Below, piece after piece: positions 2,928 to 55,995 of a stretch of DNA of 64,000 nt; position 1 is the first letter of the stretch; the number at the start of each line of letters is the position of its first letter. The notes under the pieces are model-generated. The model searched no databases and was not told the DNA's origin. It saw only the letters and a list, made by a program, of their open reading frames with translations. Source of the stretch: Candidatus Campbellbacteria bacterium (GTDB lineage Bacteria; Patescibacteriota; Minisyncoccia; Phycocordibacterales; GCA-2747955); NCBI GenBank assembly GCA_002747955.1, contig PDQZ01000010.1, positions 18,931 to 82,930 on the forward strand, in the 5' to 3' direction. Made by a program: the position numbers and the translations under genes.

Positions 2928-4049
2928 ATGATTCAAAAAATTATTATTGCTATTTTAGCTTTATTTGTATTAAGTACGAGTGTTTTTAGTCAAAGTTTGA
3001 ATTTAAAAAATTTTAATGATAAAAACAGCGGTTTGATTTCAGAGCTTTCTTTGGATATGTTTCCAAAACATCCATCATCACACCAAGAGGTTCTTTTTAA
3101 ACTAAAATCATTTTATTTTAATTTAAACTTTTCTGAAACAGTTGTTTATTTTAATGGTAAAGAGTATAAAAAAGGTGTTGGTTTAAAAGAATTTAAGATT
3201 AAAACCGGTAAGCCTGGAGAGAGAAATTTAATCCAAGTTGTAGTTAGAGACCCTAAGGGTAAAATTCATACCAAAAAAGTAGAATTTACACCCGAAAACG
3301 TTGGTCTTGTTTATGAAGTAGTAGATCCTAATGTGCCTTTTGGTTACAAAGGTAAGTCTACTGTTATTTCAAACTCTAAAGTAAATATTTTTGCTTTTCC
3401 TGATTTTGTTTCTAAAAGTGGAAAAAGAATAGATAAAAAATCCTTAATTTATACTTGGTACAAAAATGGAGAAGTTGATAACAAAGCATCTGGTTTTGGG
3501 AAATATAAATATGAAGTGGAAAGAATGCCAGCAAGACCGAGTGATTTGTATATTGATGTGCTTGTAACAGATGTTACAAAAAAGAAAGTTGCAAAAAATA
3601 AAATTTATTTTAGTCCTGAATTTACAGATGTTCAGTTTTATTCTTTAAATCAATCTTTACCATTTACTTTTAAAAATGTTGTGAAAAACGGTGTTTTAAA
3701 AACTTCTGATAAAAACACAACGGTACTTGTTGTGCCGTATTTTATGGATATGAGTGAAGATGAAAATTTAGACTATACTTGGAAGATTAATAATAAAAGG
3801 TACCTTCACAACCCTGGAGACAAAAGAGACAGGTTGGTTTTTCTGAATGATACAAACAAAAAAGAGACTATTTTAAATATTTTTTTCCAATTAAAAAATG
3901 ATTACAGAATTTTACAAACAGCTCACAAAAATTTAAAATTAATTTTAAAATCGGAAAATCAAGATGAAGTTTTAAATCAACAGTATTATAATGAAGAGAG
4001 AAGTAAAAAAAATAAAAATTCAGGACTCGGCGGCTTTTTCGGATTATAA
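2928..4049 (+). CDS. Secreted hypothetical protein
   Basis: 373 aa with signal peptide MIQKIIIAILALFVLSTSVFS. No recognisable catalytic motif. Ends in a Gly-rich tail. Confidence 0.5.
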   Translation: MIQKIIIAILALFVLSTSVFSQSLNLKNFNDKNSGLISELSLDMFPKHPSSHQEVLFKLKSFYFNLNFSETVVYFNGKEYKKGVGLKEFKIKTGKPGERNLIQVVVRDPKGKIHTKKVEFTPENVGLVYEVVDPNVPFGYKGKSTVISNSKVNIFAFPDFVSKSGKRIDKKSLIYTWYKNGEVDNKASGFGKYKYEVERMPARPSDLYIDVLVTDVTKKKVAKNKIYFSPEFTDVQFYSLNQSLPFTFKNVVKNGVLKTSDKNTTVLVVPYFMDMSEDENLDYTWKINNKRYLHNPGDKRDRLVFLNDTNKKETILNIFFQLKNDYRILQTAHKNLKLILKSENQDEVLNQQYYNEERSKKNKNSGLGGFFGL

Positions 4050-32142: not shown

Positions 32143-32178
32143 TTTTAAAATTTTAAATAATAATGTTACAATAAAAAT

Positions 32179-32622
32179 ATGAGATACGAAGTACCACAAT
32201 TTATCGATATTGAAGATAAAATTTTCGGACCATTAACTTTCAAGCAAGCCTTGTATATTGCAGGTTCGGCAGGACTTTCTTTTATGATTTATTATGGAAT
32301 TGAAAAGTTCGTACCTGTGGATTTGGGTGGAATAGTTAAGTTGATATTTGCTTCACCGCCTTTAGCAATCGGACTTGCTTTTGCTTTTATAAAGGTAAAC
32401 AAAAGACCTTTTATTAAATATGTTGAGGCTTTATTTTACTTTTTTGTAAAACCCAAAAGATATGTTTGGAGCAAAAAACAACATAATAAAAGTGAAAAAA
32501 AAGATATTGTAAAAAAACAAGAATTAGAAAGTGCTAGAATTGATAAGCAATATGTTCCAAATATTACAAGATCTAAATTGAAAGATTTAGCATGGACACT
32601 TGATATGGATACTGAAAAATAA
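32179..32622 (+). CDS. PrgI-family (VirB3-like) membrane protein of a type-IV-secretion-like apparatus
   Basis: 147 aa. N-terminal conserved stretch PQFIDIEDKIFGPLTFKQALYIAGSAG followed by two TM helices. Sits immediately upstream of the VirB4 homolog. Confidence 0.55.
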   Translation: MRYEVPQFIDIEDKIFGPLTFKQALYIAGSAGLSFMIYYGIEKFVPVDLGGIVKLIFASPPLAIGLAFAFIKVNKRPFIKYVEALFYFFVKPKRYVWSKKQHNKSEKKDIVKKQELESARIDKQYVPNITRSKLKDLAWTLDMDTEK

Positions 32623-32637
32623 AATAATATAATCAAT

Positions 32638-33324
32638 ATGAATAATAGTAGACAAAATATTAATAGTAAAAAAGGAATTGGTTCATCTCAAGACTTTGTT
32701 CCGATTAGAGAAATTAAAGATGGTTTTGTTGTTTTAGACGATGGAACTTTGGTTTCTGTTTCTTTAGTAACATCTATCAACTTATCTTTGAAATCACAAG
32801 AAGAGCAAGCATCGGTTATTGCTTCTTTTCAAGCATTTATCAATTTACTTGAATTTCCAGTTCAAATTTCTATTCAATCAAGAAAACTTGATATCAACCC
32901 TTATTTGGATTTGCTTGAACAAAGACTGAAAGAACAAACAATTGAAATTATTAAATTACAAACAATCGAATACATAGGCTTTATTAAAAACTTTACAGAC
33001 GCTATCAACATTATGGATAAGCAGTTCTTTTTAGTTGTTTCTTACAAGCCTATAACAATTGATACTTCTAAAAAAGGTTTCTTGTCAATGATTGGGGGTG
33101 AAAAGAAAACAGAAGATGAAAAACAAAAACAATCAAGAATGGTTTTTGAAGAAGCAAAATCACAGCTTGAACAAAGAGTGGGACTTTTAACATCTGGACT
33201 TTCAAGAACGGGTGTAAAAATCAAAAAACTTGATACTGAAGCTGCTTTGGAGGTATTTTATTCAACATTCAATCCGACAAGTAAGTTTACAGCTAAGGCG
33301 AATGGAGATAATATAAAGTATTAA
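32638..33324 (+). CDS. VirB4-type ATPase, N-terminal domain encoded as a separate ORF
   Basis: Signature VirB4/TraE N-terminus: FVPIREIKDGFVVLDDGTLVSVSLVTSINLSLKSQEEQASVIASFQAFINLLEFPVQISIQS. It ends in TAA TAA TAA and is in the same frame as the next ORF. Confidence 0.6.
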   Translation: MNNSRQNINSKKGIGSSQDFVPIREIKDGFVVLDDGTLVSVSLVTSINLSLKSQEEQASVIASFQAFINLLEFPVQISIQSRKLDINPYLDLLEQRLKEQTIEIIKLQTIEYIGFIKNFTDAINIMDKQFFLVVSYKPITIDTSKKGFLSMIGGEKKTEDEKQKQSRMVFEEAKSQLEQRVGLLTSGLSRTGVKIKKLDTEAALEVFYSTFNPTSKFTAKANGDNIKY

Positions 33325-33345
33325 TAATAATTTAACAAAAATAAT

Positions 33346-35148
33346 ATGGGATTTTTTAATTTTGGAAAAAAAGAAAACAATAAAAATAATATAGAAGTAA
33401 CTCAGATTTTACCTCAGGAAATATACAAATCAGCGGTTTTGGATTTGAAAGACATTATCGCTCCATCAGCTTTAGATATTAAATCAAAATATTTAGATTT
33501 AGGAGATATTTTATCAAGAACATTTTTCATTATTTCATACCCAAAATTTTTATCAGATGGGTGGTTTTCACAAGTAATTAACTTAGATAAAGAGTTTGAT
33601 ATTTCAATTTTTATAAATCCACTTGAATCAGAAAGAGCTTTAAAAAATCTACAAAAAAAAATCGCCGAAGTTCAAAGTCAAATTATGGATAGAGAGAGAA
33701 AAGGTCTCGTGCGTGACCCAGCCCTTGATGCTGCTTATTTAAATATTGAAAAACTGCGTGACAAACTTCAGCAATCAACTGAAAAACTATATTCTATCGG
33801 TATTTACATTACTGTTTACGGAGAAAATGAAAAGGAACTTGATAAAGTAGAAACAGAAATCAAATCAATTTTAGAATCAAAACTAATTTACGTTCGACCC
33901 GCTGTTTTTCAACAAGCAGAAGGTTTTAAAACAACTTTGCCTTTAAATAAAGATTTATTAAATGTTACTTCAAAATTAAACTCAGAGCCATTAGCTTCAA
34001 TTTTTCCATTTGTTTCATTTAACCTAACATCCGACAATGGTATTTTATATGGAGTCAACAGGCACAACTCTTCTTTGATTTTGTTTGATAGATTTTCACT
34101 TCCAAACTACAACTCTGTGACTTTTGCTACTTCTGGTGCTGGTAAATCTTACACAACTAAACTTGAAATTCTAAGAACTTTAATGTTCGACACAGATGTA
34201 ATTATCATTGACCCTGAACGAGAATATGAATATTTAGCAGAAGCTGTTGATGGTCGATACTTCAATATTTCACTTTCTTCATCTCACCACATCAATCCAT
34301 TCGACTTGCCACCAGTAGGTCCAGAAGATGACCCTCAGTCAATTTTAAGAAACCAAATTGTTTCTTTGGTTGGTTTTTTCAGAATTATTTTTGGAGGTAT
34401 GTCTCCTGAAGAAGACGCTATGGTCGATCGAGCTTTGACCGAAACTTACGCTTTGAAAGATATTACTCCAGAAGTTGATTTTTCAGATATCGAACCACCT
34501 TTGTTGTCTGACTTTGAAATGGTTTTGTCAGGAACAGAAGGTTCTTCAACTTTAGTTTCAAAACTTTCAAAATACATTCGGGGTTCTTGGGCTGGATTTT
34601 TAAACAAGCCTTCAAATGTTGATATGGATAAAAAGGTAACAGTTTTTTCTATTCGTGATATGGAAGAAGACTTGCGTCCAGTTGCCATGTACTTGATTAC
34701 TCATCACATTTGGAACTCTGTAAGACGAAATTTGAAAAAAAGACTTCTGGTAATCGATGAAGCTTGGACCATGATGAAATCAGAAGATGCCGCATTTTTC
34801 TTGTTTGGTATGGCAAAAAGAGGCCGAAAATACTACTTAGGGCTTTCAACAATTACTCAAGATGTGGGAGACTTTTTGGGATCTGAATACGGAGTACCAA
34901 TTATTACAAACTCGTCTATGCAGATTTTGTTAAAACAATCTCCGACAACAATCGACAGGCTTCAAGAAGTTTTTAACTTAACCGAAGAAGAAAAAATGCT
35001 TCTGCTTGATGCAAATGTAGGAGAGGGAATTTTCTTTGCTGGAACAAAACACGCTGCAATCAAAGTTATTGCATCTTATACAGAAGACCAAATTATTACA
35101 TCTGACCCATCGCAGATTTTAGCTTTAAGGAAAAAAGGAATTCAATAA
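33346..35148 (+). CDS. VirB4/TrbE/CagE-family conjugal-transfer-type ATPase (ATPase core)
   Basis: Walker A FATSGAGKSYTTK and Walker B RLLVIDEAWTMM, with a conserved C-terminal region GLSTITQDVGDF. Confidence 0.85.
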   Translation: MGFFNFGKKENNKNNIEVTQILPQEIYKSAVLDLKDIIAPSALDIKSKYLDLGDILSRTFFIISYPKFLSDGWFSQVINLDKEFDISIFINPLESERALKNLQKKIAEVQSQIMDRERKGLVRDPALDAAYLNIEKLRDKLQQSTEKLYSIGIYITVYGENEKELDKVETEIKSILESKLIYVRPAVFQQAEGFKTTLPLNKDLLNVTSKLNSEPLASIFPFVSFNLTSDNGILYGVNRHNSSLILFDRFSLPNYNSVTFATSGAGKSYTTKLEILRTLMFDTDVIIIDPEREYEYLAEAVDGRYFNISLSSSHHINPFDLPPVGPEDDPQSILRNQIVSLVGFFRIIFGGMSPEEDAMVDRALTETYALKDITPEVDFSDIEPPLLSDFEMVLSGTEGSSTLVSKLSKYIRGSWAGFLNKPSNVDMDKKVTVFSIRDMEEDLRPVAMYLITHHIWNSVRRNLKKRLLVIDEAWTMMKSEDAAFFLFGMAKRGRKYYLGLSTITQDVGDFLGSEYGVPIITNSSMQILLKQSPTTIDRLQEVFNLTEEEKMLLLDANVGEGIFFAGTKHAAIKVIASYTEDQIITSDPSQILALRKKGIQ

Positions 35149-35181
35149 AATTAAAAATATGGTATAATAAAAATAAAAAAT

Positions 35182-35826
35182 ATGTCTATTATTAAACAAG
35201 AAAGTCAAAGAGTTGCAATCTTTATAGATGCTCAGAATTTATATCATACAGCGCGTAATTTATATAACAGTAATGTAAATTTTAAAAGCATTTTAGAAGA
35301 TACTTTACAAAATCGTAAGTTGATCAAAGCAGTGGCTTATGTTATAACAACAGAAAGCAAAGAAGAATCAAACTTTTTTGATGCTTTAGAAAAAGCAGGT
35401 ATCGAAACAAAGTCAAAAGATTTGCAAATTTTTTATGACGGAAACAAAAAAGCAGACTGGGATGTAGGTATTGCAGTTGATGCTATTAGACTTTCACCAA
35501 AAGTTGATGCTGTTATTTTAGTTTCAGGAGATGGAGATTTTATTCCACTCGTTGAATATTTAAAATTTCATTCAGGTTGTCAGGTTGAATGTGCAACCTT
35601 TAAAGAATCAGCCTCATCTGGACTTTTAAATGTTGTGGACGATTTTATTGATTTGTCTGAAAACAAAAAAAGATATATTATTCCTACTTCAAAAAACTTT
35701 AAAAAATACAAAAAGAAAAACAATCAGAAAAAAGAAAAACAGAAAAATATTCAAAAAGTTAAATTAAAAAAAGAAAATCAAAAGCCAAATTTGAAACAAA
35801 GAAAGAAACCGAATAATAAAAAATAA
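35182..35826 (+). CDS. NYN-domain (LabA-like, PIN-related) putative nuclease with a Lys-rich C-terminal tail
   Basis: VAIFIDAQNLYHTARNL...VSGDGDFIPLVEYLK, carrying acidic residues typical of the NYN fold. Basic tail KKYKKKNNQKKEKQKN... Confidence 0.65.
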   Translation: MSIIKQESQRVAIFIDAQNLYHTARNLYNSNVNFKSILEDTLQNRKLIKAVAYVITTESKEESNFFDALEKAGIETKSKDLQIFYDGNKKADWDVGIAVDAIRLSPKVDAVILVSGDGDFIPLVEYLKFHSGCQVECATFKESASSGLLNVVDDFIDLSENKKRYIIPTSKNFKKYKKKNNQKKEKQKNIQKVKLKKENQKPNLKQRKKPNNKK

Positions 35827-35828
35827 TT

Positions 35829-36746
35829 ATGCCAGAAGAAAAAAATAACAGAATAAACACATCAGATGTTAAAGAAAATTTAAATCAAAAAGATAATAAC
35901 TTCAAAAAAAGAAGTAATGTGAAAACTTACAGGGATTTTGCCGTCTCTGCTTTAAAAGACAAACCTACTTCTTTAGCAAAAATGGTAATTGAAGAAAAGA
36001 AAAAACAAGAATTTGAATACCAAACTTCAACAAAAAACCCAAAAAACATGTTTTTAATCATTATTTCTTCTGTATTGGTGGTGTTGGGTGTAATAGCAGT
36101 TGCTGTTGCTTTAATATTTACAACTACAAAAATATCGCAAAACAAAGAAAACAGTTTACCACTTGAACCACAATCTCTTATTTATTTTGATTATAAAAAA
36201 GAAATTTTCTTGGAAAAATTAGATAGAGAAAATATTTTACAAATTACCAAAAACAGTATTCATGAAACTCAAATACCAATTGGAGATATAAAACTTGAGT
36301 ATTTTGTTAAAATGAATAAATATGATAAAAAAACATTAGTTACTGCAAAAGAGTTTATAAAAGCTATGGATACAAGGGTTTCTGTTCAATTTATTAAAAA
36401 TTTGAATGATCAATTCAGTTACGGAATTTATTCACACATAGAAGGTAATCGACCATTTTTAGTTTTACGTTTTACAGATATTGATTCTGTGTATACAAAC
36501 TTATTATCTTGGGAAAAAATGATTATTTCTGATTTGGGATCTTTGTTTAATATAAATAGAGTTTTCTATTCAAGACCTTTTGTTGATCTAACTTTACATA
36601 ACAAGGATGCTCGAGTTATTATGAATGGAAAAGGTGAGGTTGTATTTGGATATTCATTTATTGATTTAAATCACTTAGTATTCTTCACAAATTCAGATCA
36701 GTTCAACAAAATCATAGGTTTCTTTAATAATTATCAAAAGAAATAA
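35829..36746 (+). CDS. Membrane-anchored hypothetical protein (single TM, large extracytoplasmic domain)
   Basis: 305 aa with a TM helix FLIIISSVLVVLGVIAVAVALIF. Translationally coupled to the NYN gene (stop and start 2 nt apart). A terminator hairpin aaagcgtgcagccttcggctgcacgctttt follows. Confidence 0.5.
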   Translation: MPEEKNNRINTSDVKENLNQKDNNFKKRSNVKTYRDFAVSALKDKPTSLAKMVIEEKKKQEFEYQTSTKNPKNMFLIIISSVLVVLGVIAVAVALIFTTTKISQNKENSLPLEPQSLIYFDYKKEIFLEKLDRENILQITKNSIHETQIPIGDIKLEYFVKMNKYDKKTLVTAKEFIKAMDTRVSVQFIKNLNDQFSYGIYSHIEGNRPFLVLRFTDIDSVYTNLLSWEKMIISDLGSLFNINRVFYSRPFVDLTLHNKDARVIMNGKGEVVFGYSFIDLNHLVFFTNSDQFNKIIGFFNNYQKK

Positions 36747-36830
36747 AACAAAAAAGCGTGCAGCCTTCGGCTGCACGCTTTTCTAAATTCAAATTTTTCT
36801 AAAACTTCAAAAAATGTTATAATACAAAAG

Positions 36831-37085
36831 ATGTTAAAAAGAATTTTTCTAAATATAATTTTTATTTTTTCTTTATACTTTTTGCCTTGGTGGGCAGTTT
36901 TACCTTTACTTATTTTTTTGGTTTTCTATTTAGAATTTTTCGTAGAAGCTTTATTTTATGCTTTATATTTAGACTTTTTATTCTCAAAACCATTTCAAAA
37001 CATTTGGGATTTTAACTTTTTCTACTTTGTAGGCGTTTTAATTTTGCTTTTCTTTTCAATTTACCTTAAAAATAAAACTTTATAA
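36831..37085 (+). CDS. Small hydrophobic membrane protein
   Basis: 84 aa with two TM segments, immediately upstream of the PBP gene. Confidence 0.35.
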   Translation: MLKRIFLNIIFIFSLYFLPWWAVLPLLIFLVFYLEFFVEALFYALYLDFLFSKPFQNIWDFNFFYFVGVLILLFFSIYLKNKTL

Positions 37086-38949: not shown

Positions 38950-39300
38950 TTAACTATTCCAAGCTACAATTTTAAAGTCTGGATATAGCTTCCCAACAAT
39001 TTTTCCTATGTACTCATTGTCAGTACGACCATACCTTGACGATCTACCATTAACAAAAATTTTAGGAGTGATTTGTATGGCGATTTCGCCACCACCAATA
39101 ACCTTAAATTCTTTTTCGTATTTTTCTTGAGCAAATTTGACAATATCTTCATGATATTCATATTCTTGCAAGCTTAATGAAACAAGATATTCACTCCCTT
39201 GTTCATCTTTGAGATGAACAAATTTACCATATCCACCAGTTTTTTTAAGGTTGATAAAGACTGAAACTCCATCAACCATTTTTTCTACAATATCACTCAT
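38950..39300 (-). CDS. Small cytoplasmic protein, paralog 1 of a tandem pair (function unknown)
   Basis: 116 aa. VEKMVDGVSVFINLKKTGGYGKFVHLKDEQGSEYLVSL aligns with paralog 2. RBS aaaaaaggagaaaaacaATG. Confidence 0.6.
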   Translation of the reverse strand: MSDIVEKMVDGVSVFINLKKTGGYGKFVHLKDEQGSEYLVSLSLQEYEYHEDIVKFAQEKYEKEFKVIGGGEIAIQITPKIFVNGRSSRYGRTDNEYIGKIVGKLYPDFKIVAWNS

Positions 39301-39435: not shown

Positions 39436-39768
39436 TTACATGGTTACCCGAACATATTTATGGGGTAAAACTTCTTGAAATGTTTTTATAATTTGACCCA
39501 AGTCCGTGTCTCCAATCATCTCACTTATGGAAAATGTAATTCCATAGCACCAAAACAAACCTTCGCATAAGACTGTAAGTCTCTTACCGTATTTTTTTTC
39601 GGAAAAGTTTACAGCATACTTATGAGTATAACAATCTATGTTTGGCAACGAAGTTAAGTAGCTATTGCCCTCATCGTCCTTAGCATAAATGAATTTTCCT
39701 TGATCGTTGTCGAAACAACAATCAATAAAAAAATTCACCCCATCAACTTTTTTTTCTACTACAGACAT
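39436..39768 (-). CDS. Small cytoplasmic protein, paralog 2 of the tandem pair (function unknown)
   Basis: VEKKVDGVNFFIDCCFDNDQGKFIYAKDDEGNSYLTSL. The likely start is the second ATG (MSVVEKK...), given the paralog alignment. The tracked ORF starts at 39780. Confidence 0.55.
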   Translation of the reverse strand: MSVVEKKVDGVNFFIDCCFDNDQGKFIYAKDDEGNSYLTSLPNIDCYTHKYAVNFSEKKYGKRLTVLCEGLFWCYGITFSISEMIGDTDLGQIIKTFQEVLPHKYVRVTM

Positions 39769-39806
39769 AACTTTCTCCATTTTTTGTTTAAAGAATAAGT
39801 TATAAA

Positions 39807-44733: not shown

Positions 44734-45612
44734 ATGAAAAAAAAATATTTAAATAAGGTATTTTATAAAAATGCACAAAAAATGAAAGAAATACCAGATA
44801 ATTCAATCGATCTGATTGTAACCTCACCTCCATATTTTAATATTAAAGACTATTCTAAAAATGGTCATCAAAACAAGAAACATAGTAAAAAAAAATCAAG
44901 TCAAATTGGTGATCTTGATGATTATAAAGTATTTATAAAAGAATTGTTAAAAGTTTGGAAAGAGTGCGAGAGAATTTTAAGACCTAACGGAAAAATGGTA
45001 ATCAATACACCACTAATGCCGATGAAAAAAAAAGATTACTCCACTCATCAAAATAGACACATCTTTGATTTAAATGCTGATATACAACATTCAATATTAA
45101 ACCGTAAAAACACTAAAATGTTTCTTTATGATGTTTATATATGGGAAAGAACCAACCCAAGCAAAAAACTAATGTTTGGTAGTTATCCGTATCCAAGAAA
45201 CTTTTATGCACAAAACACTAGTGAATTTATTACTGTTTATGTCAAAGATGGGTTAACAAATAATAAATCTAATAAAAAAAATAAAGAATTAAGTAAGTTA
45301 ACTGACAAAGAATGGGTTGAATTTACTAAGCAAATTTGGAAAATTCCAATTCCAGGAAGGGGTGATATAGCTTTTGGGGAACACAGTGCAATAATGCCTG
45401 AAGAAATAGTTTATCGTTGTGTAAGATTATTCACATGTGTTGGTGATGCTGTCCTTGATCCATTCACTGGGAGTGGAACAACATTGAAAGTTGCAAAAGA
45501 AAACGGTCGTAATTTTGTTGGATATGAAATAATGGAGAGTTATCGTGATATAATTGATAAGAAAATTAAATTAGCTATTAGAAAAAATGAAGAAAAAACT
45601 CGAAAAAAATAA
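44734..45612 (+). CDS. DNA methyltransferase M1 (beta-class N6-adenine or N4-cytosine)
   Basis: Motif IV DLIVTSPPY precedes motif I FTGSGTT (beta-class order). The true start may be the internal ATG (MKEIPDNSID) at 44782. Confidence 0.8.
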   Translation: MKKKYLNKVFYKNAQKMKEIPDNSIDLIVTSPPYFNIKDYSKNGHQNKKHSKKKSSQIGDLDDYKVFIKELLKVWKECERILRPNGKMVINTPLMPMKKKDYSTHQNRHIFDLNADIQHSILNRKNTKMFLYDVYIWERTNPSKKLMFGSYPYPRNFYAQNTSEFITVYVKDGLTNNKSNKKNKELSKLTDKEWVEFTKQIWKIPIPGRGDIAFGEHSAIMPEEIVYRCVRLFTCVGDAVLDPFTGSGTTLKVAKENGRNFVGYEIMESYRDIIDKKIKLAIRKNEEKTRKK

Positions 45613-46372
45613 AATATATCAAATGGATTGTTTTGATTTTATAAAAAATCTAAAAAATGAATCCGTTGATCTTGTTGTTGTGGATCCTCCTTATAACATG
45701 AATAAAGGTGATTGGGATAAATTTAAATCAGAAAAAGATTTTTTTAATTTTACTTTTAAATGGTTGGAAGAAATAATTCCAAAAATTAAAAAAAATGGTA
45801 GTATTTATATATTTAATACTCCTTATAATTCAGCATTTATTCTTAATTTCTTGGTAAATAAAAAATTAAATTTTCAAAATTGGATAACTTGGGACAAGCG
45901 AGACGGCATGGGAGCAGCGAGAAGGAAATTTAGTAACGGACAAGAAACAATATTATTTTTTACTAAAGGAACGAAACATACTTTCAACTATAACGATATT
46001 CGTACACCCTATGAATCAACAGAAAGAATAGAACATGCAATGAAAAAAGGCATTCTGAAAAATGGTAAAAGATGGTTCCCTAATCCCAAAGGACGATTGT
46101 GTGGAGAAGTATGGCATATAACAAGTGAACGACACAAAAATAAAATTAAAGGAAAAACTCAAAAAATGAGTCACGCAACCCCTAAACCTTTAGATATGAT
46201 TGAAAGAATAATTAAAGCAAGTTCTAATGAAGGTGATTTGGTGGTAGATTTTTTTGTAGGAACAGGGACTACAGCAGTAGCATCCAAAAAATTAAAAAGA
46301 AATTTTATTTGTGCAGATAAAGAAAAAAAATATGTTGGAGTCGCAAAAAAAAGATTAAAAAATATAAAATAA
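45587..46372 (+). CDS. DNA methyltransferase M2 (beta-class N6-adenine or N4-cytosine)
   Basis: DLVVVDPPYN precedes FFVGTGTT. Overlaps M1 by 26 nt. Confidence 0.8.
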   Translation: MKKKLEKNKIYQMDCFDFIKNLKNESVDLVVVDPPYNMNKGDWDKFKSEKDFFNFTFKWLEEIIPKIKKNGSIYIFNTPYNSAFILNFLVNKKLNFQNWITWDKRDGMGAARRKFSNGQETILFFTKGTKHTFNYNDIRTPYESTERIEHAMKKGILKNGKRWFPNPKGRLCGEVWHITSERHKNKIKGKTQKMSHATPKPLDMIERIIKASSNEGDLVVDFFVGTGTTAVASKKLKRNFICADKEKKYVGVAKKRLKNIK

Positions 46373-46377
46373 AAAAT

Positions 46378-47649
46378 ATGGAAAGTAAGAATATTGACAC
46401 TACTAAAATATTAAAGCAGATTTTAGAAATAAAGCCAGAAAATAAATTTTTAAAATATATTGTAAATAGGATACAAAAAGATGATTATCGAGGGACACAT
46501 ATTTCTCAACACAATAGATACACTATGGAATATATGGAGCAAGTGTTTAATACAATATTTAAGATTGCTGGAACAAACAAATTTGCAATTCCTACAGGTG
46601 ATCATAAAATAAATTTTAATGATATTGATTTAGAAACTAAATTTAGTACATATAAAAAAATAGTTGATAGTCTATATGAAGAAACAGGTAAAGGAACATA
46701 CAATTCTGTTAAGAAGAATTTTTCTGTTGATTGGGATAAAATGTCTTTCTTGAACAGGTATGATAAGGATGGAAAGAAAAGAAACTCTTTCAAAGGTGTG
46801 GGAGTGCATTATATACAACTAACTGAGACAGCTGTGTCTCTAATAAAAGAAACTAACATTTTAAAGAAATATAAGATTTTTACCGATGCAGTAGAAAGAT
46901 TGTTTGGGAATAAACTTTCAGAAATTGTTGAAACTATTTATTATTCAGACTACAGAAATACTACTATATCAATATATGAATTTGTTTTTATATTACTTGA
47001 TAGTTCTCTTGGTCGTGAAGAAAAAATTGAGTTGATGCAGTCATATAGAGAACTGCCAAAAATAGGTAGAAATAAATTTTTTGATAAAATGAAGGAATAT
47101 GCTAAACCAAGTAACTTCGATGGGAACAAAACAAAAAAAAGAGATTTTCACAATTGGAAAAATGAGTCACAACAAATTTTGTCATTACTAAAGACAACAG
47201 TGTATTTTGACGTAGTCCTGAATAGATTTTTAAAATTAAACGTTGGCAATACTGGTATTTTTTCAGAAGATATGCTACAAAAACGTTCGGAATCTGTTAA
47301 AATTGATTATTTTAAAGAGCACGGAATAAATAAAAAAAGTAATTTCGAATTACATCATATAATACCTTTTCGTCATGCAAGAAATAAAAATGAATTGAAA
47401 TTAATTGATAATTATAAAAACTTAATATATTTACACAAAAGTAAACATAAAGAGATCACAAAAAATAAAGATAGACATGTTGTTTTGTTTATAGATCCAG
47501 AAAAATTACAACTGTCAGATTTTGAAAAAAACACGATAGAAGCTATTAACAATGATAATACAGAGTACTCAAAAAATGATTCTATTTTAAAAGCAATGAT
47601 GAAACACAATAAATCATTGTTAGAATCTATTTTTGAATATAAACAATAA
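46378..47649 (+). CDS. Putative restriction endonuclease with a C-terminal HNH nuclease motif
   Basis: 423 aa. ELHHIIPFRHARNKNELKLIDNYKNLIYLHKSKHKEI (H-N-H spacing) near the C-terminus. Starts 5 nt after M2, giving an M1-M2-R operon. Confidence 0.5.
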   Translation: MESKNIDTTKILKQILEIKPENKFLKYIVNRIQKDDYRGTHISQHNRYTMEYMEQVFNTIFKIAGTNKFAIPTGDHKINFNDIDLETKFSTYKKIVDSLYEETGKGTYNSVKKNFSVDWDKMSFLNRYDKDGKKRNSFKGVGVHYIQLTETAVSLIKETNILKKYKIFTDAVERLFGNKLSEIVETIYYSDYRNTTISIYEFVFILLDSSLGREEKIELMQSYRELPKIGRNKFFDKMKEYAKPSNFDGNKTKKRDFHNWKNESQQILSLLKTTVYFDVVLNRFLKLNVGNTGIFSEDMLQKRSESVKIDYFKEHGINKKSNFELHHIIPFRHARNKNELKLIDNYKNLIYLHKSKHKEITKNKDRHVVLFIDPEKLQLSDFEKNTIEAINNDNTEYSKNDSILKAMMKHNKSLLESIFEYKQ

Positions 47650-47799
47650 AATAAAGTTTTAAATGCTGAAAACAAAGATTACAAGCTTATTGGGTTACCA
47701 TTTTTCAATTCTGGAAATAATAGTAATTTTGAAGAAAAATTTGATGATTTAAAAAATTAAATTTGCTTTTAAATTATTTTTAATGTAAGATAAAAGTAT

Positions 47800-48249
47800 A
47801 TGGAAAATACATATAATAATAAAAAAACATTAACAAAAAGAATTATTGTTGCAAAAGCAGTTGCATTTATTTTTGCGGTTATTTATATTGCAACTTTTGT
47901 AACACAAACAAATCACGATTTAGTAAGCAAATTAAGTTTAGGAACTTTACTTGTTTGCATGACTATGGGTCTTGTGATTGCTCTTGCTGGAGTTTTTGCA
48001 AAACATCCATTTTTAGGTTTTCAAATGAAGTGGTATTTAAGAGGAGCTTTTTTAGGAACACTTATTATTTTCATGTTTGTTCTTTTGTCTTATGATGCAT
48101 TTAAAACTGTTATAGATAGTCCTTTGATTTCTTGGATGGGAATTGAAAGTCCGTATTGGGCAGTAATCGACGGAACAATTATGGGACTTATAATTGATTT
48201 TGTTGCAACAAAAATGGCAGGTGAGGGGAGAGAGCTTGAAATTTCTTAA
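47800..48249 (+). CDS. Integral membrane protein (4 TM helices), hypothetical
   Basis: 149 aa, hydrophobic throughout. Confidence 0.45.
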   Translation: MENTYNNKKTLTKRIIVAKAVAFIFAVIYIATFVTQTNHDLVSKLSLGTLLVCMTMGLVIALAGVFAKHPFLGFQMKWYLRGAFLGTLIIFMFVLLSYDAFKTVIDSPLISWMGIESPYWAVIDGTIMGLIIDFVATKMAGEGRELEIS

Positions 48250-49210
48250 GTAAAAAATAAACACAAGCAGTGTTTGTTTTTTTAATAAATTTTGATATAA
48301 TCAAATGAGTATTAACAACAGATCGGGGGTGATCTAAAAATCTCAAGTCACAGAATAATTATGTGACTAGTATAAAAAGTTGTTTAATCCGCACAAAAAA
48401 ATAAAAAATGTGCAAAAAATATTTCCTCTTGCGGGATAAAAAACCGCAGGAGGTTTTTTAATTTTCATAGTATTTATATTGTGCGACACTTCACTTTTTA
48501 GTTACTTTGTTTACTAAAATAGTGATACATAAATTTTGTTATGAAATTTCCCAAATAAAAACTTTATAAAAGACTTAAGTGTGATAAGCTCATGATTATT
48601 TAAAAATTATTTTAAAATATAAAAAAATTCTAAAAACTTTATATAAAATATGTTAAGTTTATAAATTTAATCATTTTAGCAGAATTTAAATAATAAAATA
48701 GTTAAATGTTACCATAAGTTAATTTTTAAGCATAAAACAAGCCCAAAAATGGCTTTCTAAGAGTTTTTAGAGGTACCACCATACCTTTATAATATTTTTC
48801 AAACCGAAAGTTTTTAAGCCCAAAATTAGACAATATGTAATAATTGAACTTTTACTTCAAAACAAAAAATAAAGGTATAAACATAAGGCTAAAATTTTAA
48901 TACAAACATATTAATTAACAAAATATTTAGATAAAAAGTTTCGGTAGACAGAAACAGCATAGTTATTAAAGTAAAAAGATAATTGTGCAATATCAAATAT
49001 ATTAAAAGTATTATATATGTTAAAATATATAGTAATTTAAAGTATTCAAGCCGTTTCTTAACACCCCTGAACATATTTGTCGTAAAAGATATATTGTGCG
49101 ACAAATAAAAATAATTCTAATAAACAAATAGATCACTTCTCTCTTTCTTTTATTCTCTTTTAAAAAAACAGGAGCTAAAAAACAAGCAACAACTTTTGCT
49201 TGTTTTTTAT

Positions 49211-49552
49211 TTAAACAATCTCAACTCTTTTCCCAATGGCTTGAACATATCTATAAAATAAATCTACAGACGGAGTTACTTTTCCATTTTCAATCTTTGA
49301 AATATAAGTTTTATCTTTTCCCAACTTGTCTGCAATTTCTTGTTGAGTTAATCCTGACTCTTTTCTTTCGTTTATTAAATCCTCAGCTCGAAATAAAACC
49401 ATCGCTTTTTTTCTATTGAGCTCTCTTTTTTTTGTACCCTCTTTTCCAAAAACAGAATCCAAAACATGATCAATGTTATAAGTATTTTTCTCTGATGGAT
49501 TTTTATTTAAATTTTTACTTGAAAATATATCTTTTTTATTTTTCTTTGTCAT
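49211..49552 (-). CDS. higA: XRE-family HTH antitoxin (HigA-like)
   Basis: HTH LTQQEIADKLGKDKTYISKIENGKVTPSVDLFYRY. Overlaps the upstream toxin gene by 17 nt. A bidirectional terminator hairpin follows at 49178..49210. Confidence 0.65.
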   Translation of the reverse strand: MTKKNKKDIFSSKNLNKNPSEKNTYNIDHVLDSVFGKEGTKKRELNRKKAMVLFRAEDLINERKESGLTQQEIADKLGKDKTYISKIENGKVTPSVDLFYRYVQAIGKRVEIV

Positions 49553-49871
49553 AGGCTTTTTTAATTAATTTAATTTTTTCTAACTCTTTTTTACTTAACT
49601 TTTGATTTTTCTTTTTAATTCCATTAAACAAAACAATTATTTTGTCGTTTTCATAAATATAAAAAATTCTAAATTCGTTATTTCCGTACTGCGTTCTTAA
49701 CTCATAAACTCCTTTTACACTCTTTATCTTTTTTACAAAATGTTTCAGAGTAAATTCTTGTCTAAACTTTAAAATATCAAGGGCCTTCAAAACTTTTACT
49801 GCTTCGTTAAATTCTAATTTACTTATAAATTTATCAAAATAATTTTTATATTTTTTGATTTCCCTATTCAT
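49536..49871 (-). CDS. higB: RelE/ParE-superfamily toxin (HigB/Gp49-like)
   Basis: 111 aa. KGVYELRTQYGNNEFRIFYIY...IIVLFNGIKKK matches the phage Gp49/HigB-type toxin fold. Toxin-upstream order is typical of the HigBA family. Confidence 0.6.
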   Translation of the reverse strand: MNREIKKYKNYFDKFISKLEFNEAVKVLKALDILKFRQEFTLKHFVKKIKSVKGVYELRTQYGNNEFRIFYIYENDKIIVLFNGIKKKNQKLSKKELEKIKLIKKAYDKEK

Positions 49872-50177
49872 ACCTATATATTATCACAGTTGATAAATAT
49901 ATCAACATTTAAATTGTGAATAACTTGCATTATATATCAACCTTAAAAATATTAAATTTCACTAAAATAAAAGAGGTTTTTAGTTTTTTCTTTCTTTCCT
50001 CCTTTACAATTGACTTTTTAAAATTTTGGATTATACTTAAAGTATGAATTAGCTCTGCATTTGTATTTGCAGCCCCGGGAATTGGACCCGGAACGCCCAA
50101 ATACTGCAGGGCTTTTTCTTTTATTTTTTTTAAATAAAAAACAGTTTTTATGATGTTTGTAATCATAAAAACTGTTG

Positions 50178-53637: not shown

Positions 53638-55995
53638 TTATTTCAAAAATTCATATTCATAAACTTTCGGTTTAATTTTTTGTGCAAGTATTTTCATTTT
53701 TTCTTTTAAATTCAAGTTCAGTTTTGTATAAGTTTCATCATCACTTCTTGAATTCATTCTTCCTGCTTTACTTCTTCCTTGAAAATATTCTCGTATATCA
53801 TAATAACTTGCATTTACATTTGCACCATATTGTTTATGGTAATACTTCCAAAGTTCTTTTCCTGCTTCAAAAACATCTTTTGCTTCTTTTGAAAATTCTA
53901 ACTCTTGATTTTCTTTAAAATGATTTTGATATTTTTCAAAAAACTTTTTATCAACTTCAATTGTTGTATTTTCTGAAAGTTCTTTTTGAATATTTTTTTC
54001 TTTTTCAATAACAATTTTTCCTGATTTAAAATCAGAAATAAAATCTATCATAAAATGATTTGAAAATCTTTCTTTTGCATCAACTTCTTGTTCTGAAAAA
54101 GGAACCCAAAAATTTTCTCCTTCTTTTGAACTTATTCTGTTTTGTGTGTGAAACAAAGTAAAAGTTAAACAATCCAATTGAAATTCAAAATCATTTTGCC
54201 AACCATCTTTCGGATATAAAAATTGATCTCTATCATTTAACCAAGTTGCCTTAATACATAACCTGACAGTAAAAAATATACAACTTTGAATTAAATTTTT
54301 TATTGTAATTTTTATTCTCGTATTATGGTTTTTTTCATTTAATTTACTTGCAATAAAAACCAAACTTCTTTGTTGAAAATCACTCCCTGTAGTATTTAAA
54401 ATACCTATAAAATTTTCAGGTTCTTTTTCTGAAAAAGTTGGAATCCACTGACTGATAAATTTATTGTTTTTATTAGAAGAAATATTCTTAAAGCCTAAAA
54501 AATCACAATTTTTATTATAAATATCAGCCTTAATTTCGTCGAAATCATCAATTTTTTCACCATTCCAAATAAAAAAACCAATAGGAAATTTTCCTTTTAC
54601 ATTGTCAAAGGTGTCAGCTGGAGTTAAAAATAATTTTTCAAGTTTTGGTCTAAAGTTTTGTCTGAAAATTTTAAAATTAGAACCTTGCAAATTTTTCAAC
54701 TTTGAAAAATTTGCAATTTTTGACTTTGGAATTTCTTTATAAATTCTTATTAAAAATTGAGCAAAAAGTTCATTTCGTGCTTTTGATAATTCTGACTCAT
54801 ACTTTTTATAAATTAAATTTTCTGTAGTTGTTCCAGCCTTGTGTTCTCCCTTACCTGATATTTTTGTTTTATTTCCAGCTTCCGCATACGGTGGATTAAT
54901 ATACAAAATCAACTTCTTTCTTTTCTCTTTATCATTTATTATATCTTGTAAACTTTGTGGTAACTTATCAAAAGAGTCATTCAAAAAATCAAACTGAAAA
55001 ACTTGTTTTTCTAACAAATTTTGTTTTCCAGCTTTAATATTTTCATGCATTACATTTACATCAACTTGATCAAGTGTTGATGCATAAATATTATATTTAT
55101 TTGTTAAACCTGCAAGCAGGTTTCCAGTTCCAGCTGCACAATCCCAAACATAATACTCATCTTGCCAATCTTCTCCAAAAACATCTGCAATATACTTTTG
55201 TGAAAGTTCTACCCACTGTCTTGGTGTAAAAAATGCTCCTTTTCTTTCGCGAATATCTTGTGGCACTATCAAGTCTCTTCTTTGAATAATATATTCTTGA
55301 AATTTTTTCTGTGGTGGTCTTTTGTAACTTTTCCAAAAAGATTGATAAATATCATTATTGTTTATGTTAATAGTTGCATCAAACATTTGTTTTAAATTTT
55401 CTTTTGAAATTTTATAACCTTCATTTTGGTAAATTACAAATAAATTTTCTTTTATACTAACATCGTCTGATGTGTCTTGTGTGTTTTTGTCATCTACAAA
55501 CAAATCGGCTAAATAAAAGTCGCTATCTAAAATATTTGATTTTTTTAATTCCTCCCAATCTACAGCAATTATGGGTTTAACAACTTCAAGCCATCTTAAA
55601 TATATTGGAATAAAATTATTTTTATTAATTTTTATTTTATTACTTTGTTTTGATAGCGCAATGTTTGTTTTAATAAATTTCTCAAGTTCTTTTTTGTCTT
55701 TTATATAGTTAAAAGTATATGTATTTTTTGTTAAAATACTTTCTATTCTTTCTTTAATTATTTGAAATTCTTTTGTTTCATGATTTGATGGAGTAACATT
55801 CCAATTAAAATCATTTAAATGAAAAATATCCTCAATAGAAATATAAGGTACAAAAGAAATTTTGTGAAAATCAAATGCTCCTAAAAATTCAGGTGGCAGT
55901 GTTTTATCAAAAGTTTTTGCTTTTCCAATTGTTAAAATTAACTGTACAAACATCGTTACAGTATCATAGTCTCCAGTTTTAGCTTCGGCCCACAA
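53638..55995 (-). CDS. Large N6-adenine DNA methyltransferase (gamma-class, NPPY) with long N- and C-terminal extensions; possible MmeI-like Type IIL/IIG R-M enzyme
   Basis: Motif I VWDCAAGTGNLL, followed about 75 aa later by motif IV LILYINPPYAEAG. About 285 aa precede the MTase core and about 400 aa follow it (TRD-like). The tracked ORF begins at a TTG. The frame stays open upstream through the poly-C tract to a TGA near 56087. Confidence 0.7.
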   Translation of the reverse strand: MWAEAKTGDYDTVTMFVQLILTIGKAKTFDKTLPPEFLGAFDFHKISFVPYISIEDIFHLNDFNWNVTPSNHETKEFQIIKERIESILTKNTYTFNYIKDKKELEKFIKTNIALSKQSNKIKINKNNFIPIYLRWLEVVKPIIAVDWEELKKSNILDSDFYLADLFVDDKNTQDTSDDVSIKENLFVIYQNEGYKISKENLKQMFDATININNNDIYQSFWKSYKRPPQKKFQEYIIQRRDLIVPQDIRERKGAFFTPRQWVELSQKYIADVFGEDWQDEYYVWDCAAGTGNLLAGLTNKYNIYASTLDQVDVNVMHENIKAGKQNLLEKQVFQFDFLNDSFDKLPQSLQDIINDKEKRKKLILYINPPYAEAGNKTKISGKGEHKAGTTTENLIYKKYESELSKARNELFAQFLIRIYKEIPKSKIANFSKLKNLQGSNFKIFRQNFRPKLEKLFLTPADTFDNVKGKFPIGFFIWNGEKIDDFDEIKADIYNKNCDFLGFKNISSNKNNKFISQWIPTFSEKEPENFIGILNTTGSDFQQRSLVFIASKLNEKNHNTRIKITIKNLIQSCIFFTVRLCIKATWLNDRDQFLYPKDGWQNDFEFQLDCLTFTLFHTQNRISSKEGENFWVPFSEQEVDAKERFSNHFMIDFISDFKSGKIVIEKEKNIQKELSENTTIEVDKKFFEKYQNHFKENQELEFSKEAKDVFEAGKELWKYYHKQYGANVNASYYDIREYFQGRSKAGRMNSRSDDETYTKLNLNLKEKMKILAQKIKPKVYEYEFLK

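Follow-up and report, generated by a model that had tools for sequence, protein, structure and literature searches.

A type IV secretion core beside a NYN-membrane protein gene pair on a Candidatus Campbellbacteria chromosome: probably two units

The five genes described here probably form two separate units lying side by side in the window (the whole 64,000-nucleotide stretch that was analyzed, from a chromosome of Candidatus Campbellbacteria, Patescibacteria): a type IV secretion system (T4SS) core (32164-35148) and a gene pair encoding an NYN-domain protein and a membrane protein, M305 (35160-36785), whose adjacency to virB4 would reflect a lineage-specific gene order. The first three genes correspond to a conjugation-independent T4SS core that has been described before and that nearly all Patescibacteria carry on their chromosomes. 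All five open reading frames (ORFs) were confirmed on the + strand, with intergenic gaps of 15, 21, 33, and 2 nt. The locus contains the following features:

32164..32172, + strand: extended -10 element TGTTACAAT, 7 nt upstream of the PrgI ATG
32179..32622, + strand: PrgI-family (VirB3-like) membrane protein, 147 aa, two transmembrane (TM) helices (Pfam PrgI)
32638..33324, + strand: TrsD/TraC-like protein, 228 aa, free-standing homologue of the VirB4 N terminus (NCBIfam; PF26593 on orthologues)
33346..35148, + strand: VirB4-family T4SS ATPase, short form, 600 aa (NCBIfam conju_CD1110, Pfam P-loop_TraG, PDB 4AG5)
34126..34149, + strand: Walker A motif ATSGAGKS of VirB4, aa 261-268 (motif search)
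34744..34767, + strand: Walker B motif LLVIDEAW of VirB4, aa 467-474 (motif search)
35160..35168, + strand: extended -10 element TGGTATAAT, 14 nt upstream of the NYN ATG
35182..35826, + strand: LabA/DUF88-type NYN-domain protein, 214 aa (Pfam NYN, PDB 2QIP)
35829..36746, + strand: M305, bitopic membrane protein, 305 aa (alignment, AlphaFold2)
36749..36785, strand not assigned: terminator-like GC-rich hairpin with a 17-bp stem and A-/T-run flanks, 3 nt past the M305 stop
From 36831, strand not assigned: 84-aa ORF, the next gene, with its own TGTTATAAT element (element scan)

The secretion core and its divided VirB4

The first gene had been read in the initial annotation as encoding a two-TM protein of the PrgI/VirB3 type. 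Its product indeed scored above the curated cut-off of Pfam PrgI (E 7.2e-10; 39.7 bits, cut-off 27) and contained two hydrophobic helices (aa 25-41 and 52-71), and a PrgI orthologue lay in syntenic position upstream of TrsD/VirB4 in 51 loci. The 228-aa TrsD-type product had no match in the Pfam scan. It matched the NCBIfam models TrsD/TraD (E 4.4e-8) and VirB4_plasma (E 2.6e-10), and neither score reached the cut-off set for full-length members, which is expected of a protein the size of a fragment. The precomputed Pfam family PF26593 (TraC-like) is present on its orthologues, and a TrsD-type gene was located directly upstream of virB4 in 56 loci, at a median gap of 47 nt. Single-sequence structure prediction of the TrsD-like protein gave an unusable model (pLDDT 34.6). 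The 600-aa protein was assigned with high scores to conju_CD1110 VirB4 (E 1e-111; 374.6 bits, cut-off 325; positions 183-730 of 752), and also matched Pfam P-loop_TraG (E 2e-23) and the VirB4 C-terminal domain of PDB 4AG5 (E 8e-40). Both Walker motifs named in the initial annotation were located and intact. VirB4 homologues numbered at least 8000; the best 120 were 68-100% identical, ∼600 aa long, and from Patescibacteria, to which all source-named entries among them belonged (Campbellbacteria, Pacebacteria, Parcubacteria).

Since the 228-aa ORF covers positions 97-285 of the VirB4_plasma model (894 positions in all) and the 600-aa ORF covers positions 275-893, the two together tile a full-length VirB4. 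The earlier description of a split VirB4 therefore holds as homology, but the arrangement is ancient and conserved and contains no lesion. The canonical N-terminal domain that had been ascribed to VirB4 needs qualification in a similar way: the Pfam match to this domain (CagE_TrbE_VirB) is weak and falls within the 600-aa protein (aa 64-201), and the 228-aa ORF represents only the extreme N-terminal segment of ∼190 residues. PrgI, TrsD, and VirB4 were encoded in this order at ∼50 of the 57 other species' loci and on the Geobacillus plasmid pGspE55-1, and the recurrence of the triplet in these species and on Bacillales plasmids indicates that the split is ancient. The split is the conserved arrangement of TrsD plus a short VirB4 that characterizes the pGO1-type subclass of MPF_FATA. 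One could instead suspect a pseudogene or an assembly error, that is, a nonsense or frameshift lesion that left the system dead, because the two adjoining ORFs (228 and 600 aa) sum to one VirB4 length and the same contig carries an apparent frameshift in ClpB at 7434-10128. The probability of such a lesion is negligible: the break consists of a TAA stop, a spacer of 21 nt, and a new ATG, with no frameshift; the two-gene arrangement recurs in the 56 loci and on plasmids; the best 120 VirB4 homologues all have the short length; and TrsD is a recognized family (NCBIfam; PMC12102498).

Conjugation machinery and the chromosomal setting

Channel and pilus parts were sought by Pfam and NCBIfam scans of window ORFs of ≥90 aa. 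The scanned ORFs yielded no relaxase, type IV coupling protein (T4CP), VirB6, or VirB8, in agreement with the initial annotation, which had listed VirD4, relaxase, VirB6, and VirB8 as missing from the window. A VirD4/TcpA coupling protein gave no Pfam match, and a tblastn search of the window with a VirD4-like fragment from another locus (L001) was empty. Likewise, neither Pfam and NCBIfam nor profiles of virB4-neighbor families revealed VirB6-like proteins, VirB2-like pilins, or a VirB1-like hydrolase in the window. The only accessory family found by the latter profiles was the following:

2928..4049, + strand: secreted 373-aa protein of the p373 family (tblastn, blastp cluster)

In other Paceibacteria, p373 genes are normally located directly downstream of virB4 (tblastn matches in 13 virB4 loci; a blastp cluster of 16 loci with a median offset of +128 nt from the virB4 stop). 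Here the gene lies 29 kb from virB4. The module, which had been called minimal, is so only locally, as the window holds this conserved T4SS-linked gene at a distance. Three other ORFs were considered as T4SS parts and rejected. A 426-aa protein (4064-5344), tried as DUF8128 (VirD4-like ATPase-associated), showed no BLASTP similarity to the N terminus of the DUF8128-T4CP of L065. Two candidates for VirB6-like or surface components were a 785-aa ORF (53638-55995), in which an NPPY methyltransferase motif was recognized by eye, and a 395-aa ORF (57603-58790), which had only a sub-threshold match to archaeal flagellin.

The VirB4, PrgI, and TrsD families go back to conjugative plasmids of monoderms, and NCBI names the VirB4 protein "conjugal transfer protein TraC." The module might accordingly be what is left, or a portion, of an integrated conjugative or mobilizable element, with the relaxase and coupling protein encoded beyond the window. 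We regard this as extremely unlikely. No relaxase, T4CP, integrase, or flanking repeat was found; repeats around the locus were AT-rich chance matches only. No tRNA adjoins the module, as the structured RNAs detected with Rfam comprised only four tRNAs elsewhere in the window, far from the locus. The GC content is uniform (∼30%), without a compositional island, and the flanks consist of housekeeping genes, with iPGM and PBP2 adjoining the module and further housekeeping genes extending for ∼30 kb on either side. An element just outside the window had been named as a possible source of the module; the 3.7 kb past the left end contained housekeeping genes as well (TruB/MreB). Moreover, VirB4 identity is 65-85% across many Patescibacterial species, in each of which the gene is chromosomal. 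This pattern points to vertical inheritance, a view shared by the survey of Quinonero-Coronel et al. 2025 (PMC12102498).

This survey found VirB4, TrsD, and PrgI/VirB3 to be widespread in Patescibacteria and the system to be related to MPF_FATA, with relaxases rare and T4CP genes rarely near virB4; T4SS parts were often dispersed or undetectable, and VirB8 homologues went largely undetected. The relaxase-less chromosomal system of the window is exactly the one described there. Hence, two statements of the initial annotation are upheld: that VirB4 mini-systems are known from CPR bacteria, and that the module is a VirB3/VirB4-based, T4SS-like one rather than a classical conjugation system, given its housekeeping flanks and the lack of a relaxase and T4CP in the window. 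In Southlakia (Southlakia epibionticum), epibiotic growth was reported to strictly require the T4SS (Wang et al. 2023, PMC10633639; PMC12857230). The core belongs to the small set of machines that Patescibacteria have been shown to need for their epibiotic life. The first unit would be the energizing and membrane-anchoring core of the relaxase-less chromosomal T4SS that typifies Patescibacteria and is derived from monoderm MPF_FATA conjugation machinery. By analogy with VirB3 and VirB4 of studied T4SSs, PrgI would hold oligomeric VirB4 at the membrane, where VirB4 would hydrolyze ATP to drive assembly of a pilus or channel and passage of substrate. According to the literature, the core would serve host interaction in epibiotic growth and not conjugation. 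Any remaining parts (pilins, a VirB6-like protein, a T4CP) would be encoded outside the window.

The NYN-M305 pair and its transcription

The fourth gene encodes an NYN nuclease-like domain (aa 10-160) followed by a Lys-rich tail (aa 166-214), as the initial annotation had proposed: the domain matched Pfam NYN with an E value of 1.3e-33 (116.9 bits, cut-off 24.2) and PDB 2QIP (VPA0982) with 5e-27, and the 49-residue tail contains 21 Lys/Arg and 2 Asp/Glu residues. In seven orthologues, the acidic motifs FIDAQN, DWDVG..DA, and SGDGD and the residues D16, D92, D94, D100, D116, and D118 were invariant. The protein, with its intact acidic active site, is probably a (ribo)nuclease. Homologues numbered 7941, the best 120 of which were 53-100% identical and spread across Patescibacteria. 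The NYN profile found nothing in viral contigs. A role in defense was considered and rejected, PADLOC returning only a generic LabA-like NYN domain match with no system context.

The ATG of M305 follows 2 nt after the NYN stop. M305 was correctly annotated as a single-pass membrane protein: a conserved juxtamembrane motif on the cytoplasmic side (aa 31-60) is followed by one TM helix (aa 74-100) and an extracytoplasmic α/β domain (aa ∼110-305), predicted by AlphaFold2 with pLDDT >90 for aa 120-300. Its family profile matched 4318 cluster representatives. No Pfam domain was found in 10 long members of the family, and scans with the profile retrieved only two short contigs from metagenomes and nothing from viral contigs. 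Since VirB8 is the subunit that mostly escapes detection in Patescibacteria (PMC12102498), M305, two genes downstream of virB4 and bitopic with the N terminus inside and a C-terminal α/β ectodomain as is typical of Gram-positive VirB8-like proteins, might be the missing VirB8-like (or another structural) subunit. This is very unlikely. The predicted fold had no PDB match at E≤1e-3; the 50 best Foldseek matches in PDB included no VirB8, TraM, PrgL, or TcpC, the best being DcrB (E 2.9e-3), and the NTF2-like fold that marks VirB8 was not found in the predicted extracytoplasmic domain. Furthermore, the virB4 neighborhoods of the 57 other species contained no member of the family except for one distant profile match in L026, ∼8 kb upstream of the gene, and away from virB4, M305 adjoins Mur ligase and peptidoglycan-binding genes.

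Promoters were called as consensus matches. TGnTAnAAT elements occur 7-15 nt before the ATG in about a dozen genes of the window. Element TGTTACAAT likely marks the start of a (near-)leaderless PrgI-TrsD-VirB4 transcript, and TGGTATAAT gives the NYN-M305 unit a putative promoter of its own. An extended -10 element precedes NYN but is absent before TrsD, VirB4, and M305. In three genomes that have the pair away from virB4 (L063, L065, and L071), equivalent elements occur 9-11 nt before NYN. The hairpin behind M305 was called on the - strand by the scan, and its + strand reading, with a T-rich tail (TTTTCT) after the stem, was made by eye. No terminator was found between VirB4 and NYN, which together with the gap of only 33 nt means that cotranscription by read-through is possible.

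Gene order around virB4 and comparison with known systems

Gene order was compared with the virB4 loci of 57 other species and of the close relatives L060, L061, L062, L066/67, L003, and L009/L057. The pair was found downstream of virB4 in only one clade, comprising the window genome, L060, L061, and L066/67. The initial annotation had considered the association of nuclease and VirB4 as possibly functional and had proposed to check its synteny. It holds within this clade but fails beyond it: in the 57 species, the nearest 10 kb on either side of virB4 contained no NYN profile match, and in three close relatives (L062, L003, L009/L057) virB4 was not followed by NYN either. In one genome, NYN and virB4 were 26 accession numbers apart. 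Of 8 distinct contexts, 7 have NYN ahead of M305 and only 4 of the 8 lie downstream of virB4, and both families are far more widespread in Patescibacteria than the adjacency to virB4. These results indicate that NYN and M305 form a tighter partnership than NYN and VirB4, as the pair also occurs away from virB4. A functional link between NYN and VirB4 is weakly supported, and the adjacency of nuclease and virB4 is probably lineage specific and incidental.

Alternatively, all five genes could constitute one module, in which a T4SS ATPase core cooperates with a membrane-tethered NYN nuclease that processes the nucleic acid being moved (uptake or release of DNA or RNA). The location of the genes on one strand with short gaps and a sole terminator after M305 is consistent with this. 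So is the conservation of the five-gene block in the four genomes of the clade: their outer flanks differ in all, which suggests more than inheritance of a whole neighborhood. P0011 and P0316, which share a 4577-bp contig, and P0019 and P0314, whose contigs have the same length (17155 bp), may be further cases of adjacency, and the other location of the pair is after pilin genes. A 2026 preprint (10.64898/2026.06.21.733656), which reports that a Patescibacterium with T4SS-like tubes takes up host RNA, was counted in favor as well. Nonetheless, a single module appears unlikely. Neither NYN nor M305 has an orthologue beside virB4 in the 57 other species (0/57), the three close relatives lack the pair at this site, and NYN has a putative promoter of its own. 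Both proteins represent phylum-wide families with adjacency limited to one clade, and NYN is mentioned neither in the preprint nor in the T4SS survey (PMC12102498).

We therefore favor two units. The second would be a terminator-closed pair with its own promoter, encoding a cytoplasmic LabA-type NYN protein, whose Lys-rich tail would bind nucleic acid, and bitopic M305. Based on their adjacency in most contexts and the 2-nt gap in the window genome, we infer that the two proteins may work jointly on the cytoplasmic side of the membrane, possibly in a housekeeping RNA or envelope-linked role. Its slot downstream of virB4 would then be a gene-order state of one lineage and not the sign of a T4SS-nuclease machine.

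In sister genomes, the pair directly follows type IV pilin genes, beside cell wall genes. This location, too, is next to an envelope-spanning filament machine and could hint at a shared theme. We consider it distinctly improbable, but conceivable, that NYN-M305 is a membrane-tethered nuclease module that serves such machines (the T4SS here, type IV pili in the sister genomes) by cutting host-derived nucleic acid, e.g., the host RNA whose import by Patescibacteria the 2026 preprint reports; if so, the two recurrent positions of the pair would reflect function and not chance. Action of the pair with the T4SS or type IV pili on host nucleic acid would bear on how reduced bacteria obtain nucleotides, although this link is weak. 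What the locus adds to the literature is one more, notably stripped-down instance of the core and a conserved pair, not yet described, of an NYN and a bitopic membrane protein, both from very large Patescibacterial families.

Among known systems, the core is most like the T4SS of Patescibacteria: VirB3/PrgI, TrsD, and VirB4 adjoin on the chromosome, without a relaxase or a T4CP nearby, and VirB4 shares 65-85% identity with that of many Paceibacteria and other Patescibacteria. Unlike in other Paceibacteria, the locus in the window's clade is cut down to the three core genes. Missing from the window locus are virB4-flanking families seen there (large secreted proteins, an upstream protein of ∼215-350 aa, a pilin, and 420-aa membrane proteins), and the slot of the usual downstream gene, p373, is occupied by NYN-M305. 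In contrast to L002, the locus is not near dnaA but ∼14 kb from a terminus-like GC-skew maximum. With trsC-trsD-trsE of pGO1/pSK41-type MPF_FATA systems it shares the gene order and the same VirB4 split, and the order is shared, too, with the PrgI/TrsD-like/DUF87-VirB4 triplet of Bacillales and haloarchaeal plasmids (Geobacillus pGspE55-1), in which the split likewise yields a TrsD-like protein of ∼200-300 aa and an ATPase of ∼600-640 aa. However, TrsD identity to the plasmid systems is only 24-32%, and these are embedded in conjugative or plasmid-borne clusters with peptidoglycan hydrolases and large surface proteins, whereas the window genes are chromosomal and lack DNA-processing machinery. 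The NYN protein resembles LabA/DUF88 proteins (COG1432) such as Vibrio parahaemolyticus VPA0982 (PDB 2QIP), with a full-length domain and all acidic motifs present; it differs from VPA0982 in its variable Lys-rich C-terminal tail (49 aa here, up to ∼160 aa in relatives) and in its pairing with a gene for a bitopic membrane protein.

Three-gene secretion core and the two-part VirB4

The virB4 locus comprised five co-oriented ORFs at 32179-36746, separated by gaps of 15, 21, 33 and 2 nt:

32179-32622, forward strand: ORF1, PrgI family protein
32638-33324, forward strand: ORF2, TrsD-like protein (228 aa)
33346-35148, forward strand: ORF3, VirB4 (600 aa)
35182-35826, forward strand: ORF4, NYN-domain protein (214 aa)
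35829-36746, forward strand: ORF5, membrane protein M305 (305 aa)

ORF1 scored above the Pfam cut-off for the PrgI family (VirB3-like) and had two hydrophobic helices. ORF3 was identified as VirB4 (NCBIfam conju_CD1110, E 1e-111, above the curated cut-off; E 8e-40 against PDB 4AG5, the C-terminal domain of Thermoanaerobacter VirB4) and contained both Walker motifs, A (ATSGAGKS, aa 261-268) and B (LLVIDEAW, aa 467-474). ORF2 had no match in the local Pfam copy; in NCBIfam it matched the TrsD/TraD family and covered positions 97-285 of the VirB4_plasma model (894 positions), of which ORF3 covered 275-893, and its orthologues belonged to the precomputed family PF26593 "TraC-like". Together, ORF2 and ORF3 thus cover a full-length VirB4, as the initial annotation had recognized in calling this ATPase split. 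A lesion as the origin of the split was ruled out by the junction itself (TAA stop, 21 nt, ATG), by the uniform length of the best 120 VirB4 homologues (all ~600 aa), and by the conserved gene order, with a TrsD-like gene upstream of virB4 in 56 loci (median gap, 47 nt) and PrgI upstream of the TrsD-like gene in 51. It was further ruled out by a plasmid parallel: Geobacillus plasmid pGspE55-1 exhibits the same PrgI/TrsD-like/DUF87-VirB4 order, and plasmids of Bacillales and haloarchaea commonly encode TrsD-like proteins. A pseudogene reading of the locus, to which a divided ATPase gene might point, is very improbable.

In several Nealsonbacteria-like and other genomes, virB4 contained an in-frame, stop-free insertion of ~640 aa (L049:7316-11050, L050:7313-11065, L051:1309-5031 and L053:1581-5267). 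One end directly adjoins the Walker A residues GAGK, the last residues are HN, and the next residue is Ser; the insertion thus bears the signature of a putative intein in the P-loop.

Relaxase, T4CP, VirB6, VirB8 and T4SS pilin families were not detected among the scanned window ORFs of ≥90 aa, in agreement with the earlier statement that the window is without a VirD4 coupling protein, relaxase, VirB6 or VirB8; that the locus is a mobile element, as the plasmid-borne counterparts could suggest, has at most a very slight probability. The remaining families that flank virB4 in other Paceibacteria had profiles matching nothing near virB4, either in the window or in close relatives. One usual neighbour was present at a distance: the gene at 2928-4049 encodes a secreted 373-aa protein of a family (p373) whose members directly follow virB4 in 13-16 further loci of Paceibacteria (median, +128 nt), and in the window this gene is displaced 29 kb from virB4. 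There it lies between genes for a 148-aa signal-peptide protein (2412-2858) and a 426-aa N-terminally anchored protein (4064-5344), both without family assignment. The empty neighbour profiles and the displaced p373 gene therefore indicate that the virB4 locus is genuinely cut to three genes in this clade; at least one usual neighbour has moved away, and its position is taken by NYN-M305.

The NYN-M305 pair and its genomic contexts

ORF4 comprised a full-length LabA/DUF88-type NYN domain (Pfam E 1.3e-33; PDB 2QIP E 5e-27), with all conserved acidic motifs intact in seven orthologues. The Lys-rich tail noted initially was borne out (21 Lys/Arg in 49 residues), its length being very variable among relatives. 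Patescibacteria carry this family very widely and with good conservation (7941 matches, the best 120 of which were 53-100% identical).

M305 is bitopic. Its single transmembrane helix directly follows a strongly conserved cytoplasmic motif (VKTYRDFAxxALKxKPTSLAKMxIxEKKK), and its 190-residue ectodomain was modelled at pLDDT >90. Foldseek returned no PDB match at E≤1e-3 (best, DcrB at E 2.9e-3), and its 50 best matches included no VirB8-like structure; that this single-helix protein is VirB8 is accordingly given hardly any probability. The family profile matched 4318 cluster representatives (50% identity), 1013 of them at E≤1e-30. Members (P0143-P0288) vary in their N-terminal extensions, which reach ~350 aa; Pfam has no model for the family, and no Pfam domain was found in ten long members; this is apparently a sizeable, uncharacterised, Patescibacteria-wide family of membrane proteins.

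Synteny with virB4 was assessed in the loci of 57 other species representatives (±10 kb flank, ~0.9 Mb). The NYN profile had no match in this sample, and that of M305 had a single distant one, ~8 kb from virB4 in L026. Among close relatives, whose VirB4 is 82-85% identical to that of the window, the full five-gene block recurred in L060, L061 and L066/L067 with differing outer flanks, and the pair was not downstream of virB4 in L062, L003 and L009/L057. The proposed NYN-virB4 association hence holds in some close relatives and fails in others and in the 57 further species. A rough neighbour-joining VirB4 tree grouped every adjacency case into a single clade, within which the arrangement has apparently been lost in places. 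Homologues on equal-sized contigs (4577 and 17155 bp) suggest two further candidate adjacencies, and in another genome NYN and VirB4 were 26 accession numbers apart on one contig. M305 orthologues occurred in eight distinct contexts, with NYN directly upstream in seven; four lay downstream of virB4, and in three (L063/64, L065 and L071) the pair was located elsewhere. In these three a Mur ligase and/or peptidoglycan (PG)-binding gene followed the pair, which in L063/64 and L071 came after one or two N_methyl (type IV pilin-like) genes. In L072, M305 occurred without NYN.

In about a dozen window genes, the ATG was preceded at a distance of 7-15 nt by an extended -10 element (TGnTAnAAT; consensus matches at, e.g., 2912, 10915, 19970(-), 27292(-), 27400, 29934, 30607, 32164, 35160, 36815, 39925, 42355, 57508(-) and 62167(-)). 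Since this spacing leaves no room for a Shine-Dalgarno leader, mRNAs of this organism may be predominantly leaderless or near-leaderless. Within the five-gene block, the consensus scan found the element before PrgI (32164) and before NYN (35160, TGGTATAAT) and none in front of TrsD, VirB4 or M305; the next one precedes an 84-aa gene at 36831, and a 17-bp GC-rich hairpin lies 3' of M305 (36749-36785). The same element preceded NYN in L063, L065 and L071, where the pair is away from virB4. No terminator was found between virB4 and NYN, so read-through is possible.

The family assignments, the intact motifs, the conservation and the order of the genes are observations; as an interpretation, we consider it probable that the block consists of two units, a secretion core and a separate NYN-M305 unit. 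That all five genes form a true T4SS-nuclease module, as the recurring block and possible read-through would allow, is unlikely given to what extent NYN-M305 occurs apart from virB4. In the favoured two-unit arrangement, established T4SS knowledge suggests that PrgI/VirB3 would anchor VirB4 at the membrane and TrsD would supply the N-terminal VirB4 segment in trans, with assembly and transport powered by ATP hydrolysis; the core would serve host interaction, not conjugation. NYN, as a cytoplasmic nuclease-like nucleic-acid-binding protein, may act together with bitopic M305 in a housekeeping or envelope-linked role independent of the T4SS.

Genomic setting and genetic code of relatives

The GC content was ~30% throughout the window, and the block was flanked by housekeeping genes: upstream, lactate/malate dehydrogenase-like, malic enzyme, methyltransferase and phosphoglycerate mutase genes; downstream, those for a small hydrophobic protein, PBP2 and TypA/BipA. 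A matching Logan contig reaching 3.7 kb past the left end of the window encoded RbfA, TruB and MreB. At ~46000-50000, the cumulative GC skew reached its maximum and gene orientation switched from + to -, so that this zone looks like a replication terminus; it includes a Gp49-like/HTH toxin-antitoxin pair (49211-49871). This zone is only ~14 kb from the virB4 locus; in many Paceibacteria (e.g., L002) virB4 adjoins dnaA/dnaN. Two restriction-modification systems were present, one at 44734-47649 (two N6/N4 DNA methylases and a type II restriction enzyme; PADLOC REase_II, E 6e-74) and one at 53638-55995, where a 785-aa ORF contains an NPPY methyltransferase motif, matches no family and is possibly a type IIG-like enzyme. 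A ClpB-like chaperone gene was apparently frameshift-split into two overlapping ORFs in different frames (7434-9275 and 9148-10128); the cause may be an error in sequencing or a genuine frameshift. Two small paralog-like ORFs adjoin on the minus strand (38950-39300 and 39436-39780), one of which gave a Janus/Ocnus match (Pfam E 3e-10); this family, to which the eukaryotic phosphohistidine phosphatase PHPT1 belongs, is unusual in a bacterium.

Compared with window positions 33346-36746, close relatives whose VirB4 is 82-92% identical (L009, L057, L060-L062, L065-L069, L071 and L072) had in-frame TGA codons (e.g., L060:9420, L066:5315 and L060:11578). These mostly align with Trp (TGG) in the window proteins, including the VirB4 Walker B Trp and the invariant Trp228 of M305, which indicates that such relatives probably read UGA as Trp in a code-4-like reassignment. 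TGG occurs in frame 134 times in the window genome, where TGA interrupts none of the real genes. Paceibacteria lineages that are very closely related thus seem to differ by a change of genetic code.

Comparison with known Patescibacterial systems

That NYN-M305 is a nuclease tethered to the membrane and helps to acquire nucleic acid from the host through the T4SS or T4P, a reading compared with a preprint on feeding on host RNA (10.64898/2026.06.21.733656), is doubtful, slightly more so than the five-gene module; the pair adjoins virB4 in some genomes and type IV pilin-like genes in others. NYN is mentioned neither in that preprint nor in the T4SS survey of Quinonero-Coronel et al. 2025 (PMC12102498), and the pair with its lineage-restricted position beside virB4 is undescribed. 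According to that survey of 2,474 virB4 genes, Patescibacterial VirB4 forms a monophyletic clade related to MPF_FATA, PrgI/VirB3 adjoins virB4, relaxases are almost absent, and T4CP genes are seldom near virB4 (PMC12102498). The T4SS is reported to be essential to Southlakia when it grows as an epibiont (Wang et al. 2023, PMC10633639; 2025 review, PMC12857230). The PrgI, TrsD and VirB4 genes of the window thus represent an already described system, whose split architecture is also known.
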